64,000 nt of DNA, taken from assembly GCA_018609195.1 (NCBI GenBank), contig JAHCSE010000018.1, positions 4,750-68,749 on the forward strand, in the 5' to 3' direction. How positions within the stretch are numbered: the stretch's first letter is position 1; the number at the start of each line of letters is the position of its first letter. The DNA comes from Patescibacteria group bacterium (lineage in GTDB: Bacteria > Patescibacteriota > Minisyncoccia > Minisyncoccales > RBG-13-36-15). The notes below the pieces were generated by a model. The model ran no database searches. It was not told the origin of the DNA and worked only from the letters and a program-made list of their open reading frames with translations. Positions 5,772 to 55,859 of the stretch are shown here, piece after piece. The position numbers were made by a program, and so were the translations under genes.

Positions 5772-5792
5772 ATAAACCAAATCGAAAATCGT

Positions 5793-5935
5793 CTACCCCA
5801 GTACCATTCGGTACGGGGTAGGTATGAACCGGCTGGTTCTGTACCACGACTCCCAGCCACAGCACCATTCGGTGCGTGGCTAGGCACGAACCGTATGGTT
5901 CTGTGCCAGCCCCAGTCACCGAATTAAAACCTTGA
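5793..5935 (+). repeat. about 2.5 tandem copies of a ~56-nt double-hairpin unit (structured RNA candidate)
   Basis: CCCCaGTACCattcGGTACGGGG + GAACCggctGGTTC, then CAGCCACaGCACCattcGGTGCGTGGCT + GCACGAACCgtatGGTTCtGTGC. Stems differ but stay complementary (compensatory changes). Confidence 0.6.
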
Positions 5936-5965
5936 GCGCGGTTCGAGAGACCGAGCAAGTAAAAG

Positions 5966-5995
5966 AATCGCCAAGAAGGCGGTTTTTTGATATGC
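5966..5995 (+). terminator. ATCGCC..GGCGGT hairpin + T-run (member of window-wide hairpin family)
   Basis: aatcgccaagaaggcggttttttgata. Confidence 0.55.
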
Positions 5996-6100: not shown

Positions 6101-6490
6101 ATGAGTGGATACGGATTTGCGGATCGTAGTCAGCCTACTCCTGCACCGCAAGCGCCAAAGATGACTTACAAGCAGATGCTTGAGGTTATCAATTCGGTCA
6201 AGCCTGGTGATAGGCTTCGTATAGTCTTCGCCGATGAGGAGTTCGATGGCGATCTCAAGGGTCGCGTCTATCATATCCTTGCGATGTGTGCCCCGGTCGG
6301 TCGAGCTATAGACATCGGCGAGCTTCCGATGTTCAACCTTCAGGCGGTCGCCGACAGTGGCAGGTGGATAGGATTTCGCACCTACGTCGCCACGATCCTC
6401 GACGGGTTCGATCCCAGACACTTTGTCAGCCGTACAATCGGGCACGACATGCTTGAGAGCATCAACCGAATCGATGGTCCGCTGATCTGA
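6101..6490 (+). CDS. hypothetical protein encoded in GC-rich island (129 aa from MSGYGFADRSQ)
   Basis: ATG 6101 is preceded by GGAGA. Strongly GC-rich compared with flanks. A hairpin + T-run follows (6515-6560). No recognisable domain. Confidence 0.5.
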   Translation: MSGYGFADRSQPTPAPQAPKMTYKQMLEVINSVKPGDRLRIVFADEEFDGDLKGRVYHILAMCAPVGRAIDIGELPMFNLQAVADSGRWIGFRTYVATILDGFDPRHFVSRTIGHDMLESINRIDGPLI

Positions 6491-18453: not shown

Positions 18454-18888
18454 ATGGCAAAATCAAATCACAATGCCAAGGGATGGCCTCGAGATAGCTA
18501 CACCGGCCCCGGCGGCGGACTATATACCGACCCAGGGGGAGGGCTTTATACCGGTCCTGGCGGCGGAGCGTATACTGGACCCGGCGGCGGTCTTTACACA
18601 GGGCCTGGAGGAGGTTTGTACACTGGGCCAGGTGGCGGATTATATACCGGACCGGGTGGTGGCCTCTACACTGGCCCCGGTGGTGGATTATCTACGGGTC
18701 CGGGAGGAAGTCTTTATACAGGCCCAGGTGGAGGGCTGTACACTGGACCCGGTGGGGGTCTTTATACTGGACCATGCGAAGAACCTTACTATAGCAATTG
18801 GCCGCCTAGGGAAGTTTTTCTCAAACACTTAAAGGAGCTTGGTATGGATGATATATACCAGCTTCTCAAAGATAGTTGGGGTTTATAA
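18454..18888 (+). CDS. Gly/Tyr-rich octapeptide-repeat protein with small alpha-helical C-terminal domain
   Basis: 15-aa head, 11.5 x (Y-T-G-P-G-G-G-L), 37-aa tail CEEPYYSNWPPREVFLKHLKELGMDDIYQLLKDSWGL. The repeat peptide is conserved only in this frame. Confidence 0.6.
   Translation: MAKSNHNAKGWPRDSYTGPGGGLYTDPGGGLYTGPGGGAYTGPGGGLYTGPGGGLYTGPGGGLYTGPGGGLYTGPGGGLSTGPGGSLYTGPGGGLYTGPGGGLYTGPCEEPYYSNWPPREVFLKHLKELGMDDIYQLLKDSWGL
18499..18774 (+). repeat. 11.5 tandem 24-nt repeats (coding)
   Basis: Units differ mostly at third codon positions (e.g. ggc/ggt/gga/ggg, ctt/ttg/tta/ctc/ctg). Confidence 0.9.
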
Positions 18889-19251: not shown

Positions 19252-19884
19252 ATGTTAGTTTTTATTGACGAGTCTGGAGATCCAGGATTAAAAATAGAAA
19301 AAGGATCTAGTCGATATTTCACGGTATCGTTGGTTATATTTGAGGAGAGAGATGAGGCCTTGGCTTGCGATCAGAGAATCAATCTTTTGAGAAAAGAATT
19401 AGGCTGGGAGCCAAATAGCGAATTCCATTTTAAAAGAAACTCCGATAAGGTAAGGCGGGCTTTTTTACAGGCGGTGGCTCCATATAATTTTTTCTATTAT
19501 GGAATTGTTATTAATAAAGACCCCAAAAAGCTTTGGGGTGAGGGTTTTAGAGATAAAAAATCTTTTTATAAATATACTTGTGGTTTAGTATTTGAAAATG
19601 CAAAAGAGAAGTTAGAAAGCGCAATCATCATAATTGATAAAAGCGGAAATTTAGATTTTAGAAGACAGTTGGCAAAATATTTACGAAAGAGAATGAATGA
19701 AAGAGATAAGAAATTAATTAGAAAAGTAAAAATGCAACGATCGAGTGGGAATAATTTATTGCAGTTAGCGGATTATGTTGCGGGTGTGATAAATAGATCT
19801 ATCCAAAAAGGGAAGAAATATGCAGAGGAATACAGAAAAATCATAGCGCATAGAGAAATTTATGTTCAAATTTGGCCAAAATAA
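19252..19884 (+). CDS. DUF3800 domain protein
   Basis: MLVFIDESGDPG N-terminus and C-terminal LLQLADYVAG, typical of DUF3800. Confidence 0.8.
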   Translation: MLVFIDESGDPGLKIEKGSSRYFTVSLVIFEERDEALACDQRINLLRKELGWEPNSEFHFKRNSDKVRRAFLQAVAPYNFFYYGIVINKDPKKLWGEGFRDKKSFYKYTCGLVFENAKEKLESAIIIIDKSGNLDFRRQLAKYLRKRMNERDKKLIRKVKMQRSSGNNLLQLADYVAGVINRSIQKGKKYAEEYRKIIAHREIYVQIWPK

Positions 19885-20042
19885 GAACCTTGCCTTCGGC
19901 AGAACCTTGATTCCTTTGGAATTAAGAACCTCACCTTCGATGAGAACCTTGTTTTCTTGTTTCACTCGAAAATAAAACTTCCGAGCCTATCCCTTTCGGG
20001 AACGCGGCGATAAACGCCACAGTTCAGCTCGGAAGCAATTCC
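19885..20042 (-). ncRNA. candidate structured sRNA convergent on DUF3800 (three-way junction + AGGTTCT/hairpin repeats)
   Basis: Minus-strand TTGACA (20078-20073), 18 nt, TAATAT (20054-20049). Then CUUCCGAGC..GCUCGGAAG closes two hairpins (GUGGCG/CGCCGC, UCCC-GAAA-GGGA) followed by UUUUAUUUU. After that come 4 x AGGUUCU separated by small hairpins. Confidence 0.4.
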
Positions 20043-30649: not shown

Positions 30650-31669
30650 ATGCCAAGAATTGCAATAAATGGATTTGGTAGGATTGGGAGACCCACTTTC
30701 AAGAAAATTTTAAAAGACCATTCCGATTTGGAAGTGGTAGCGATTAATGATTTGACAGATACGAAAACCTTGGCTCATCTGTTAAGATATGATTCTGTTT
30801 ATGGAATCTATAATAAACAAGTAAAATCTTCTGAAGATTCCCTTTTAATCGATGGAAAGCGCGATGGAAAAAAAGTTAAGGTTTTAGCTGAGACAGATCC
30901 CGCAAAACTCCCTTGGAAAAATCTGGGAATAGATCTTGTTTTGGAATGCACTGGCAGGTTCACTGAAATTGAGGGAGCAAAAAAGCATTTGGCAGCAGGA
31001 GCTAAAAAAGTGATAATCTCTGCCCCCTGTAAAAGCCCAGGGGTGAAAACTTTTGTTTTGGGAGTAAATGAAGAAATGTATGATCCGAAAGCAGATAATG
31101 TAATTTCAATGGCTTCTTGTACTACCAATTGTTTCGCTAACGTAGTTAAAGTTTTAAATGACAATTTCAAGATAATTCGGGGTTTTATGACCACTGTCCA
31201 TAGTTATACCAATGATCAAAGAGTTCTGGATTTACCCCATAGGGATTTGCGAAGAGCAAGGGCAGCAGCCTTAAATATTATTCCAACTACCACAGGGGCA
31301 GCAAAAGCCATTGGTAGGATTATTCCTGAATTAGAAGGGAAATTAAATGGTATTGCCTTTCGAGTTCCCACTCCCACAGTATCAATTTTAGATTTAATTT
31401 GTGAAGTTGAAAAGAAAACAACTACTGAGGAAGTAAATTATATTTTTAAAAAGGCTTCTGAAAAAAAAGAACTACAGGGAATTTTAGGAATAGAGGACAC
31501 TCCCTTAGTTTCTTCTGATTATATTGGCAATTCTTTCTCTGCAATTGTTGATAGCCCTTTGACTATGGTCAAAGACAATTTGGTCAAAGTTGTCGCCTGG
31601 TACGATAACGAATGGGCATACGCTTGTCGTCTTGCTGAGTTCGCAGAATTTGTTGGAAAGAAACTTTAA
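30650..31669 (+). CDS. gap: type I glyceraldehyde-3-phosphate dehydrogenase
   Basis: INGFGRIGR, SCTTNC and WYDNEW motifs. Confidence 0.9.
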   Translation: MPRIAINGFGRIGRPTFKKILKDHSDLEVVAINDLTDTKTLAHLLRYDSVYGIYNKQVKSSEDSLLIDGKRDGKKVKVLAETDPAKLPWKNLGIDLVLECTGRFTEIEGAKKHLAAGAKKVIISAPCKSPGVKTFVLGVNEEMYDPKADNVISMASCTTNCFANVVKVLNDNFKIIRGFMTTVHSYTNDQRVLDLPHRDLRRARAAALNIIPTTTGAAKAIGRIIPELEGKLNGIAFRVPTPTVSILDLICEVEKKTTTEEVNYIFKKASEKKELQGILGIEDTPLVSSDYIGNSFSAIVDSPLTMVKDNLVKVVAWYDNEWAYACRLAEFAEFVGKKL

Positions 31670-31866
31670 TTTTTGATTAACTAAATAAATAAAGTTAGCG
31701 TATGCCCATTCGCACAGGAGGGGTCGGGAGGATTGGGTATCCTCCCGTGGTGGAAAAATAGGAGGTTGCCGAAGGCAACCGACGTAAGAAACCGAAGGTG
31801 TCTTAGGAGCGGAGCGAAGCGAACCCGAAGGGCGAGCGCCTGAACAAAGTGAAGGAAGAGCGGAGC

Positions 31867-31929
31867 GACGAATGGGCTTACGCCTGCCGTCTAGCTGAAT
31901 TTGCAGAATATGTTGGAAAAAAGCTATAA
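31867..31929 (+). pseudogene. orphan C-terminal fragment of a second gap allele (DEWAYACRLAEFAEYVGKKL*)
   Basis: 20 codons + stop parallel the real C-terminus NEWAYACRLAEFAEFVGKKL* (31607-31669), with mostly synonymous differences. Confidence 0.6.
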
Positions 31930-45624: not shown

Positions 45625-45658
45625 ATTCTACCAAAAACCGCCTTCTTGGCGATTTTTT
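45625..45658 (-). terminator. hairpin + extended -10 (TGGTAGAAT) module
   Basis: Minus strand: aaaaaatcgccaagaaggcggtttttggtagaat. Confidence 0.55.
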
Positions 45659-46725: not shown

Positions 46726-46937
46726 AAGATTGTGAATTTGATTTGTTATGTTAATAACAAAGATTCGACCTTTTTGAACACCTTTCTATAATGGCTAATT
46801 TCGTTATTTGAGGTGCTCCTATTTTATCAATTCTAGCAAAAAACTTCTCCTTTGTCGATTGTTATCTAAAAAAAAGACCCCCAGGCATTGCATTGATGCT
46901 TTGCCTGAGGGCTCAGAAAGGGGGGAAATCGGCTGGG

Positions 46938-47162
46938 TTAGTCGTGGTCTGCGATCCATCTTTGAAGCTGGGCGATCCGTTCTAGGACCTGGACGTGACA
47001 GGTCCCGATTGCCTTGATTTCTCCGAACTCCTGCGGGGACATCCCGAGCCCAAGGGCCTCCTTTTCGAGGAACCAGAGTTCCTCTTCTGGAGTACGCTGC
47101 GTCTCAGCCGGTACCTCCCGAACCGGTGCTTTCCTAACCGGTGCCTCCACAGTCAATACCAT
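46938..47162 (-). CDS. 74-aa protein in GC-rich mini-island
   Basis: AAGGAGGT RBS 7 nt upstream of ATG. Own TTGACA-17-TAGAGT promoter (about 47196-47224). Long terminator hairpin at 46868-46915. Confidence 0.5.
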   Translation of the reverse strand: MVLTVEAPVRKAPVREVPAETQRTPEEELWFLEKEALGLGMSPQEFGEIKAIGTCHVQVLERIAQLQRWIADHD

Positions 47163-52605: not shown

Positions 52606-52732
52606 ATTGCAATTCTACCAAAAAACATACCCCATATAAAGCCCCGAACCAGAAACTTCGTTTCAGTTCGGGACTAGTCCAGCACCGTGCTCTGCTCTGG
52701 TGCTGGGCTTAGTTTTTGTGCGGGGTCGCCAC

Positions 52733-52963
52733 AAAAAAAAGAGCCCCCAAGCATTACATCAATGCTTTGCCTGGGGGCTTGGTGGTGGCCCTGAAGGGGC
52801 CTTGGCAAAAAGGGCTAATGGGGGAGAGGGAAAGCGATCCCGGGGTGAGACACCCCGCCGAGGTCATAAAGGAAGGTTACCGGTTTGGCGCATCGCCATG
52901 GAGCCAACTTCCATCCTTCCCGCTTCGAGACCTCTGGTTGAAGAGAACCACCTTCCCTCTCCC
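52733..52963 (-). ncRNA. GC-rich structured RNA, paralog A (unknown class)
   Basis: TTGACT (52997-52992), 16 nt, TATAAT (52975-52970). Transcript starts GGGAGAGGGAAGG and pairs with UUCCCUCUCCC (52821-52833). There are several internal hairpins. It ends in a 17-bp hairpin + U8 (52733-52780). Confidence 0.5.
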
Positions 52964-53021
52964 AAATTAATTATAATTTTTTCAGAACTTGAGTCAAGAG
53001 GAAGGCTAAATAAAAACTCTC

Positions 53022-53056
53022 ATTCTACCAAAAATCGCCCACAAGGCGATTTTTTG
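53022..53056 (-). terminator. hairpin + extended -10 (TGGTAGAAT) module
   Basis: Minus strand: aaaaaatcgccttgtgggcgatttttggtagaat. Confidence 0.55.
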
Positions 53057-54942: not shown

Positions 54943-54972
54943 ATTCTACCAAAAAATCGCCTTTTTGGCGAT
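54943..54972 (-). terminator. hairpin + extended -10 (TGGTAGAAT) module
   Basis: Minus strand: atcgccaaaaaggcgattttttggtagaat. Confidence 0.55.
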
Positions 54973-54976
54973 TAAA

Positions 54977-55171
54977 CAAAAAAGCCCAGAGGGGGCCTTT
55001 TGGCGAAAAGAGCTGGAAAGAGCTGAAGGGAGAGGGGAGGCGATTCTGTCTGAGGTGAGCCTCCCGTATCTGACCACGATGAGGTAGAGAGGTACCGTTC
55101 TGCATCGCGCCACGTCTGAGTCCCCAAGGAGGGGAACGTTTGAGGGTCCGGAGAACCACCTGCCCTCTCCC
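54977..55171 (-). ncRNA. GC-rich structured RNA, paralog B (unknown class)
   Basis: TTGAAT (55205-55200) + TATAAT promoter, nearly identical to paralog A. The 5' end GGGAGAGGGCAGGUGGUUCUC pairs with CCUCCCCUCUCCC (55028-55040). The interior has diverged but keeps hairpins. Confidence 0.5.
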
Positions 55172-55286
55172 AAGTTAATTATAGTTTTTCCAGAACTTGA
55201 TTCAACCCCCACACCTATTTTTAGGTAGTGGCGGGCTTGCCATTCCATAGCTTTAGCGAAGGATGGGCTAAAAGTTGGCTGACTTT

Positions 55287-55859
55287 TTATTTTAGTTTTT
55301 TTAATTTAATGTCGTATATAATATTTTCTATTTTTCTTAGATTTCTTTCTGTTTCATCATATTTTCGCCTTAATTTTCCCGTAAAACCAATCTTAGTAAG
55401 TTCCTCGCTAATATTTTCAATTACTTTTTTATACGAAAGTAACTGTTCAAGATTCTCTGCGCTTGCTATAGTTATTGCTCTTCTTATAAGCTCACCCGTA
55501 AAATCACAGATTCCAGAAATTATCTCCTCTGGCCCCACTTTAATAAAATCAGGAGTTTCTTTTTCAGGTTTGGTTAGAAAGTTATAAAAGGTTATGGCTT
55601 CAATATATTCTTCGACCGCTTCTCTATAAGAAACTTGATTTACCAAATCTTTATTTTTCTTAATTATTTTGTTAATTAATCTAAAAAGATTTTCTACTTT
55701 TTCAATTATCTTTTCACTTTCTTTTATATTATCTCTGCGCAATAAGGCAATCGCTTTTTTAGATGCAACTCTAATTTCATTAGAAATTTTTTGAATCTCG
55801 TATATTAATTCCTGGGTTTCTTGATGCTCTTTAATCGATTTTTTTAATAAATTATTCAT
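55287..55859 (-). CDS. possible translin-family nucleic-acid-binding protein
   Basis: All-alpha 190 aa. GICDFTGELIRRAI resembles the translin/TRAX G..D..GEL.R motif. Weak call. Confidence 0.4.
   Translation of the reverse strand: MNNLLKKSIKEHQETQELIYEIQKISNEIRVASKKAIALLRRDNIKESEKIIEKVENLFRLINKIIKKNKDLVNQVSYREAVEEYIEAITFYNFLTKPEKETPDFIKVGPEEIISGICDFTGELIRRAITIASAENLEQLLSYKKVIENISEELTKIGFTGKLRRKYDETERNLRKIENIIYDIKLKKLK

Follow-up and report, generated by a model that had tools for sequence, protein, structure and literature searches.

Does the GC-rich sequence between a SpoU methylase gene and the gene of a 92-aa protein in a Patescibacteria chromosome encode a stand-alone structured RNA, and to which class of RNA would it belong? 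The genomes of Patescibacteria are tiny and encode few recognised regulators, and to our knowledge almost nothing is known about their non-coding RNAs. The window, meaning the whole stretch of DNA analysed here (64,000 nucleotides of contig JAHCSE010000018.1), represents ordinary chromosome that encodes FtsZ, enolase, GAPDH, PPDK, RF-1 and L25; homologs of one neighbor gene, at 66-75% identity, are named Candidatus Nealsonbacteria. The original prediction read the locus as a promoter-driven, terminator-ended non-coding structured RNA with a paralog, and this reading is supported by the paralog itself, by strand-specific G·U pairs and by the absence of Rfam and Pfam matches. The best explanation overall, held with moderate confidence, is that a stand-alone gene for a small non-coding RNA is present twice in this Nealsonbacteria-like Patescibacteria chromosome, as RNA A at this locus and as its paralog, RNA B. 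The pair is at present a good candidate from one species and no discovery; a strongly promoted, GC-rich and end-locked RNA in two diverged copies would be of value as a specific candidate for a regulatory or ribonucleoprotein RNA confined to this lineage.

Transcription units and coding potential

RNA A is preceded on the minus strand by the promoter TTGACT-16-TATAAT (52970..52997), which agrees with the consensus at 11 of 12 positions; the -10 box is followed by TAATTT and then by G52963, the predicted start, 6 nt past TATAAT. A TTGACT-16-TATAAT promoter with the RNA beginning 6-7 nt further on had been part of the original prediction and was confirmed, with GGGAGAGGG beginning after 6 nt. 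RNA B is located 2.2 kb from A (55171-54975), in direct orientation, and its promoter is TTGAAT-16-TATAAT (55178..55205, minus strand): the 28-nt promoter pattern, spacer included, occurs twice in the 64-kb window, at A and B only, against 0 expected occurrences. The predicted paralog was recovered with conserved promoter, end helix and tail. Both RNAs, A from 52963 to ~52733 and B from 55171 to ~54975 on the minus strand, are predicted to have their own sigma-70-type promoters and intrinsic terminators; the predicted transcripts start with the first G of GGGAGAGGG and would be about 195-230 nt long.

The genes of this region are arranged in the order PIF1 helicase, PD-(D/E)XK nuclease, Translin, RNA B, HDAC-like protein, HicB-like protein, SpoU methylase, RNA A, 92-aa protein and DUF4015. 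An extended -10 module, TTTTGGTAGAAT, occurs 10 times in the window compared to 1.2 expected occurrences, with more copies in relatives; minus-strand examples from the pattern count include 52612-52623, 53022-53033, 54943-54954 and 45625-45636, among others. In the copies that were read, a start codon follows 6 nt further on; several genes of the window and of its relatives are apparently leaderless, with the module as a recurrent promoter element of the lineage. Some of these modules are fused to an ATCGCC...GGCGAT terminator hairpin. The copy upstream of RNA A (53022..53033, minus strand, read from the sequence) directly follows the SpoU terminator and precedes the -35 box of RNA A by 25 nt; this TGGTAGAAT module, at 53033-53022, would provide a possible second, upstream start for RNA A.

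The genes downstream of A and of B carry TTTTTTGGTAGAAT-N6-ATG/GTG modules of their own; two terminators lie between each RNA and the module of its downstream gene, and these downstream genes are unrelated, being the 92-aa protein and DUF4015 for A and the HDAC-like protein for B. For these reasons, A and B look like separate transcription units. If they were instead cis-acting leaders (riboswitch or attenuator), A would control the 92-aa/DUF4015 operon and B the HDAC-like gene; an RNA upstream of a gene in the same orientation, with terminators in between, is the arrangement expected for such a leader, yet this reading is highly improbable in view of the two tandem terminators, after which each downstream gene has a promoter module of its own right at the start codon, the unrelated downstream genes of A and B, the lack of a match to any riboswitch family, and a very stable end helix of 19-20 bp (P1, below) that leaves no plausible switching. 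The tandem terminators, the separate promoter modules at the downstream start codons and the 19-20-bp P1 were also the grounds for rejecting membership in the riboswitch/cis leader class.

The claim that the best open reading frame comprises 11 codons was mistaken, and the sense strand of RNA A has ORFs of 37, 30, 24 and 16 codons. Those starting with ATG (37 and 16 codons) lack a proper ribosome-binding site, as read from the sequence, and the sense ORFs of RNA A have no counterparts in paralog B. Antisense to RNA A runs an ORF of 127 aa, and another, of 100 aa, extends across RNA B together with its promoter and terminators; Pfam gave no match for these long overlapping ORFs. The 100-aa ORF, a spurious one, served as a protein query in case the gene callers of relatives had called it; it matched itself alone in the databases searched (1.84 billion representative proteins; 5.8 billion clusters).

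Predicted fold and comparison of the two copies

The core of RNA A consists of 142 nt and forms, in the MFE fold, a predicted three-way junction of the helical domains P1, P2 and P3. P1 pairs nt 1-19 or 1-20 with nt 124-142; its 5' strand, termed the handle, is GGGAGAGGGAAGGUGGUUC (52945..52963, minus strand), identical in paralog B at 20 of 21 positions, and its 3' strand is GGAUCGCUUUCCCUCUCCC (52822..52840, minus strand), which the fold pairs with the 5' strand through four wobbles that are G·U on the minus strand only. The original prediction had paired the ends through GGGAGAGGGAAGG and UUCCCUCUCCC; the pairing itself held, and its extent was understated, the helix being longer (nt 1-19/20 with 124-142). 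The 7-nt junction strand J1/2, UCUUCAA, leads into P2, the large variable domain (RNA nt 27-106; 52858..52937, minus strand) with the base helix CC-GAGGUC/GACCUC-GG; P2 includes the helices AGAGGUC/GACCUC and GGAAGG/CCUUCC, and its blocks GCGAUGC and AACCGGUAACCU are common to paralog B at matching positions. P3, the 7-bp hairpin CGGGGUG-UCU-CACCCCG (52841..52857, minus strand), is stacked directly on the P1 3' strand. Among the hairpins predicted at the outset, AGAGGUC/GACCUC, GGAAGG/CCUUCC and CGGGGUG/CACCCCG are part of the MFE fold, whereas AUGGA/UCCAU and GGCG/CGCC do occur in the sequence and are alternatives to its apex.

The 3' tail of RNA A (52733..52821, minus strand, from the fold) consists of the 20-nt linker CCAUUAGCCCUUUUUGCCAA, the hairpin GGCCCCUUCAGGGCC, the terminator hairpin and U8. 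The hairpin GGCCCCUUCAGGGCC is not followed by a U tract in A; its equivalent serves as the terminator in B. The terminator had been described as a 17-bp hairpin with U8; the U8 was right, and the stem is one of 12 + 3 bp with internal loops. The complete 231-nt RNA A folds with -111.1 kcal/mol, compared to -85.0 +/- 5.0 for dinucleotide shuffles (z = -5.2), and 0 of 200 shuffles were as low; the 142-nt core alone reached z = -4.95 against shuffles. The cores of A and B have a GC content of 60-62%, compared to the window average of 37%.

The RNA B core comprises 144 nt (55028..55171, minus strand), with a P1 of 20 bp that contains one C·C mismatch, P2 at nt 21-108, P3 at nt 109-120, and AGAC as J3/1. 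Its tail (54975..55027, minus strand, from the fold) is composed of a linker with two copies of the repeat CAGCUCUUU, the terminator GGCCCCCUCUGGGC and U6; a terminator-like site is found at 55001..54979. The 21-nt 5' handle of A recurs in B at 55171-55151 with one mismatch, which amounts to two occurrences in the window against 0 expected. The unit of A/B homology extends exactly from the -35 box to the GGCCCC..GGGC terminator hairpin, and nothing aligns outside; these boundaries fit a gene-sized duplication. From the -35 box to +21, promoter spacer included, A and B are about 94% identical, and the P1 3' strands are largely identical as well; the interiors of ~100 nt are weakly alignable, with a score of 28.5 against 12.5 +/- 7.2 that was reached by 23 of 1000 shuffles. 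Positional anchors common to both interiors are GCGAUGC (nt 67/63), AAC(C)GGUA(A)CCU, and CUCACC (nt 114/112). GCGAUGC is paired in the MFE fold of B whereas it forms a hairpin apex in A, and one convincing common P2 structure could not be derived from the two interiors. Ahead of the terminator hairpin, A and B both retain, in part, the linker motif CUUUU-N-GCCAA.

The pattern of change between the copies was examined helix by helix. In the RNAalifold comparison, 16 of 19 P1 pairs are unchanged between A and B, and the other three changed one-sidedly with the pairing kept, once from G·U to G-C and twice from U·G to U-A. All four non-Watson-Crick pairs in P1 of RNA A read G·U on the minus strand, whereas the opposite strand would give A·C; two of these wobbles, U14·G and G16·U, recur in B. 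Folding of the plus strand of A leaves a P1 of only 11 bp and a free energy of -62.3 kcal/mol, compared to -74.3 kcal/mol for the minus strand; for the B core, the corresponding values are -60.5 kcal/mol on the minus strand and -58.8 kcal/mol on the plus strand, with z = -2.3 and -1.1, respectively. The P3 stem differs in sequence (GGGGUG/CACCCC in A, GAGG-CUCA-CCUC in B) while it occupies the same place and has CUCACC in common; similarly, GAGGUC/GACCUC at the base of P2 in A has GACC/GGUC as its counterpart in B. The mismatches that are G·U on the minus strand, together with the pairing of P3 and of the P2 base kept with different sequences, argue for selection at the RNA level; since the comparison comprises two sequences only, the pairing kept between A and B is suggestive and not statistical.

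As a caveat, the near-identical promoter and handle could be the result of gene conversion between copies 2.2 kb apart, and not of selection. In a rival reading, A and B would be non-functional GC-rich duplicated or mobile DNA, such as an inverted-repeat element or a foreign remnant, whose apparent conservation would come from gene conversion. The direct orientation of the copies at a distance of 2.2 kb favors conversion; the exact handle is absent from three sequence collections, and no such RNA lies beside the Translin or DUF4015 homologs of relatives (see below); other GC-rich inserts exist in this genome, and a terminator module is common to A and an unrelated locus. Nevertheless, we regard non-functional DNA as decidedly unlikely: the mismatches of the inverted repeat are all G·U on one strand, the homology takes in promoter and terminator and stops exactly there, the unit borders show by eye no target-site duplication, there are two copies only in about 94 kb of genome, and no transposase or integrase is found among the Pfam matches of the window ORFs that were scanned. 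A MITE or inverted-repeat DNA element was rejected specifically, with homology that runs 45 nt upstream and ~50 nt downstream of the repeats, mismatches in the A repeat that are strand-specific (G·U, minus), and two copies in about 94 kb; an invertible promoter switch was also dropped, the promoter being outside the repeats. Judging from sequence and predicted fold, it is fairly likely that A and B constitute a genuine, independently transcribed structured non-coding RNA gene pair.

Known RNA families and candidate functions

In Rfam 15, no family reaches its gathering threshold for A or B, and relaxing the cut-off to E<=10, for a stretch of 901 nt as well as for the isolated cores, yielded nothing but noise; the original assignment to no known class is in agreement with this outcome. 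ARAGORN found no tRNA or tmRNA. A likeness of GGUGGUUCUC to 4.5S RNA had also been proposed and did not hold up, as it extends over 10 nt only and has no covariance-model support; the models RF00169 and RF01854 for domain IV of the bacterial SRP (4.5S) RNA gave no match at E<=10. Other candidates were dropped on inspection: RNase P, for which the CR-I/CR-V-like strings are not long enough and the size of the RNA is insufficient; a mimic of the 16S 3' end or anti-SD (AUCGCCUCC vs. AUCACCUCC), which lacked CM support; and tRNA-like CCA ends, which are not conserved in B.

In overall layout, A and B share features with several known systems. The bacterial Y RNAs (Yrn1, YrlA) also have their ends in a long conserved stem, a variable distal module, and neighboring paralogs, and the Y RNA stem acts as a protein handle; in contrast to Y RNAs, A and B showed no tRNA-like module and no Rfam match, and no Ro/Rsr (TROVE) domain was found in the Pfam annotation of the window ORFs that were scanned or on record for 20 kb of flanks. 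Retron msr-msd RNAs and hok-type toxin mRNAs resemble A and B in the long-range helix that joins the transcript ends; unlike in retrons, there is no reverse transcriptase gene near A or B, with the 92-aa protein and DUF4015 or the HDAC-like protein located downstream, and unlike in hok-like type I toxin mRNAs, A and B lack a conserved small ORF with a ribosome-binding site. Finally, the GC island (60% vs. 37%), the strong predicted structure and the long intergenic region recall the orphan GC-rich intergenic RNAs of AT-rich genomes, as sought by the GC-rich intergenic-region approach (e.g. PMC8632094). Motifs of this kind are defined by multi-species covariation, whereas A and B are two paralogs in one species.

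The comparison with 6S RNA (RF00013) has more to weigh on both sides. A and B resemble 6S RNA as small RNAs predicted to be stable, with a sigma-70 promoter, a long closing end helix, an asymmetric junction and a 3'-side hairpin, and 6S RNA also occurs as two paralogs in some genomes; they differ in lacking an RF00013 match, in the short unpaired junction strand, in a distal domain that is branched rather than a rod, most clearly in B, in a core of 142-144 nt, and in lacking sequence conservation found in related species. A closing stem from both ends is present, P1 having 19-20 bp in A and B; with regard to a 6S-type bubble, J1/2 of A has 7 nt and its P2 is roughly rod-like, and in B the junction strand varies by fold from 0 to 14 nt and P2 is branched. 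As a 6S-like RNA, either copy would sequester the sigma-70 holoenzyme, with P1 mimicking upstream promoter DNA, J1/2 and the P3 hairpin the open bubble, and P2 the downstream duplex; release would proceed by pRNA synthesis templated on J1/2 and the conserved P1 5' strand, with a predicted pRNA, 5'-AAGAGAACCACC..., complementary to about nt 8-26. This proposal draws on the end helix of ~20 bp, the junction flanked by G-C pairs, and the hairpin on the 3' side of the junction, a position that many 6S RNAs are said to share in the 2005 description by Barrick et al. It also draws on a 5' strand by the junction, the putative template, that is more conserved (20/21) than its 3' partner; on two paralogs, as in Bacillus; on the near-consensus promoter; and on RNA C of a related species (below), with its similar build and unrelated sequence. 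We nonetheless consider a 6S-like RNA unlikely: the isolated cores have no match to RF00013 or any other 6S-type model at E<=10, the unpaired 5' junction strand has 7 nt only in A, P2 is branched, clearly so in B, the core of 142-144 nt is smaller than usual for 6S, and the handle is conserved in no GTDB species representative.

A base-pairing sRNA would have the core as its stabilising part, with the single-stranded U/C-rich linker between P1 and the terminator or a C/U-rich P2 loop (such as CCUCUC in B) pairing with mRNAs. The stand-alone layout of promoter, sRNA and terminator would suit this function, and so would the linker motif CUUUU-N-GCCAA, partly conserved in both copies, and the C/U-rich motifs in P2. 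However, complementarity to the window and to related loci is at chance level (best 13 nt, E about 1); several window genes look leaderless, so that few Shine-Dalgarno targets are left; and conservation is highest in P1, which is fully paired, and not in a single-stranded seed. An action by base pairing is therefore improbable.

A stable trans-acting structured RNA fits best with the combined features of the locus: the promoter, the predicted start at the first base of the end-locking helix, the strand-specific G·U pairs, the helices kept between the copies, the GC content, the terminator, and the duplicate with a divergent interior. In our best reading, A and B represent a lineage-restricted RNA of this type that may be bound by protein via the conserved P1 handle. 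In the proposed mechanism, P1 with its 19-20 bp would lock the ends together and shield both from exonucleases; the conserved P1 duplex would be the recognition handle for a protein partner, and the divergent P2 domains could give the two copies different specificities. This protein-handle mechanism is the one favored here and is put forward as a tentative possibility. The ORFs scanned across the 64-kb window were also considered as a source of candidate partners; their Pfam matches include neither Ro/TROVE nor reverse transcriptase proteins, nor Cas proteins, transposases or integrases, and yielded no partner. A more far-reaching reading makes A and B the founders of a new class of stable RNAs in Patescibacteria, with an end-locked three-way junction, a constant handle marked by G·U pairs, and a fast-diversifying distal domain; this class would constitute a modular ribonucleoprotein or decoy system whose paralogs have a common protein partner and differ in specificity, and RNA C (L043 6087-5959) would be a sequence-divergent member. 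Such a class appears doubtful and is offered as speculation.

Distribution and other GC-rich regions

Relatives of A and B were sought by sequence, by structure, and by genomic position. The exact 5' handle gave chance matches only, without the closing strand, in viral contigs, JGI metagenome contigs and one genome per GTDB species; one of these chance matches is an unrelated Angelakisella repeat. The handle probe was an exact 19-21-mer and thus insensitive, and a covariance model made from two sequences is a weak instrument; the model built from A and B (R1) matched only A and B in about 270 kb. blastn of phage and plasmid collections returned nothing, and anchoring on PIF1 and Translin identified no viral loci. 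Seven loci of related species, anchored on neighboring genes, contain no homolog of the RNA, and their gene order is shuffled; RNA B is absent downstream of Translin homologs with 68-80% identity (L001-5, L013, L014), and RNA A is absent upstream of DUF4015 homologs with 75-81% identity (L041-44, L050). Locus L049 (98% identity) ends 119 nt upstream of DUF4015 and is hence uninformative. Three other samples yielded contigs of the same species in which the RNAs are identical, and ~30 kb more of the same genome (L045, L047) contain no third paralog. Within the reach of these searches, the family comprises two genes in one species; since no homolog was found outside the species, the gene may be young or dispensable. 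The Translin-family protein next to RNA B (55287-55859, minus strand) is of bacterial type and has 93 homologs, mostly from metagenomes of related bacteria; in relatives, its gene is unlinked to RNA B.

This genome and that of a relative contain several other GC-rich, strongly folding regions without an Rfam match. In RNA C, from a related species (L043 5959-6087, minus strand), the ends are locked by a helix of 18 bp (ACGGGAGUUUCUUUGGGA / UCCCAAAGAAACUCUCGU); there is also a three-way junction, with a small hairpin ahead of the 3' strand, and a U tract. RNA C and a tyrosine integrase gene are arranged with their 3' ends facing each other. RNA C has no match in Rfam and no sequence similarity to A or B. 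Since other GC-rich folding regions exist, RNA C among them, such RNAs may be common in the lineage, which lowers the singularity of A and B and raises the value of a systematic search; the further structured GC-rich regions without Rfam match suggest an unexplored RNA repertoire.

Two such regions flank the window in the same genome. RNA D (L045 16051-16275, plus strand) lies ~5 kb past the end of the window; its promoter, TTGACA-17-TATAAT, is perfect and is followed by 108 GC-rich nt closed by GGCCAGGGAAGG/CCUUCCCUGGCC and then by a terminator, and RNA D has no Rfam match. An intergenic region of ~230 nt that is likewise GC-rich (L047 15950-16180, minus strand), located ~5 kb ahead of the window, contains GGUUCGAGUCC and gave no match by ARAGORN or Rfam.

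Within the window, the only Rfam match at gathering level is a DUF3800-IX RNA (RF02968) at 19973-20036 on the minus strand (58.3 bits, E = 4e-10); it lies immediately 3' of a DUF3800 gene (19252-19884, plus strand), on the opposite strand. The region 5780-5990 (plus strand) is composed of two tandem units of ~55 nt with two hairpins each, followed by a terminator (z = -6.5, no Rfam match); after it come a TTGACA..TATCAT promoter and a GC-rich orphan ORF of 129 aa (6101-6490, plus strand), a layout that recalls type III toxin-antitoxin loci. At 31609-31925 (plus strand), a GC-rich insert of 188 nt (31697-31884) directly follows the GAPDH stop codon; the insert is closed by a 16-17-bp inverted repeat with a third copy inside the 3' end of the GAPDH gene, and the last ~30 nt of the GAPDH gene are duplicated after it, so that it looks like an inserted structured or mobile element. 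A GC-rich orphan ORF of 74 aa with a strong Shine-Dalgarno sequence is found at 46938-47162 (minus strand); its terminator (46868-46913, minus strand) is 87% identical to the RNA A terminator (52733-52779), and the two look like a shared or duplicated terminator module. Finally, a GC-rich ORF at 18454-18888 (plus strand) contains tandem repeats of the GPGGGLYT type and has no Pfam match.
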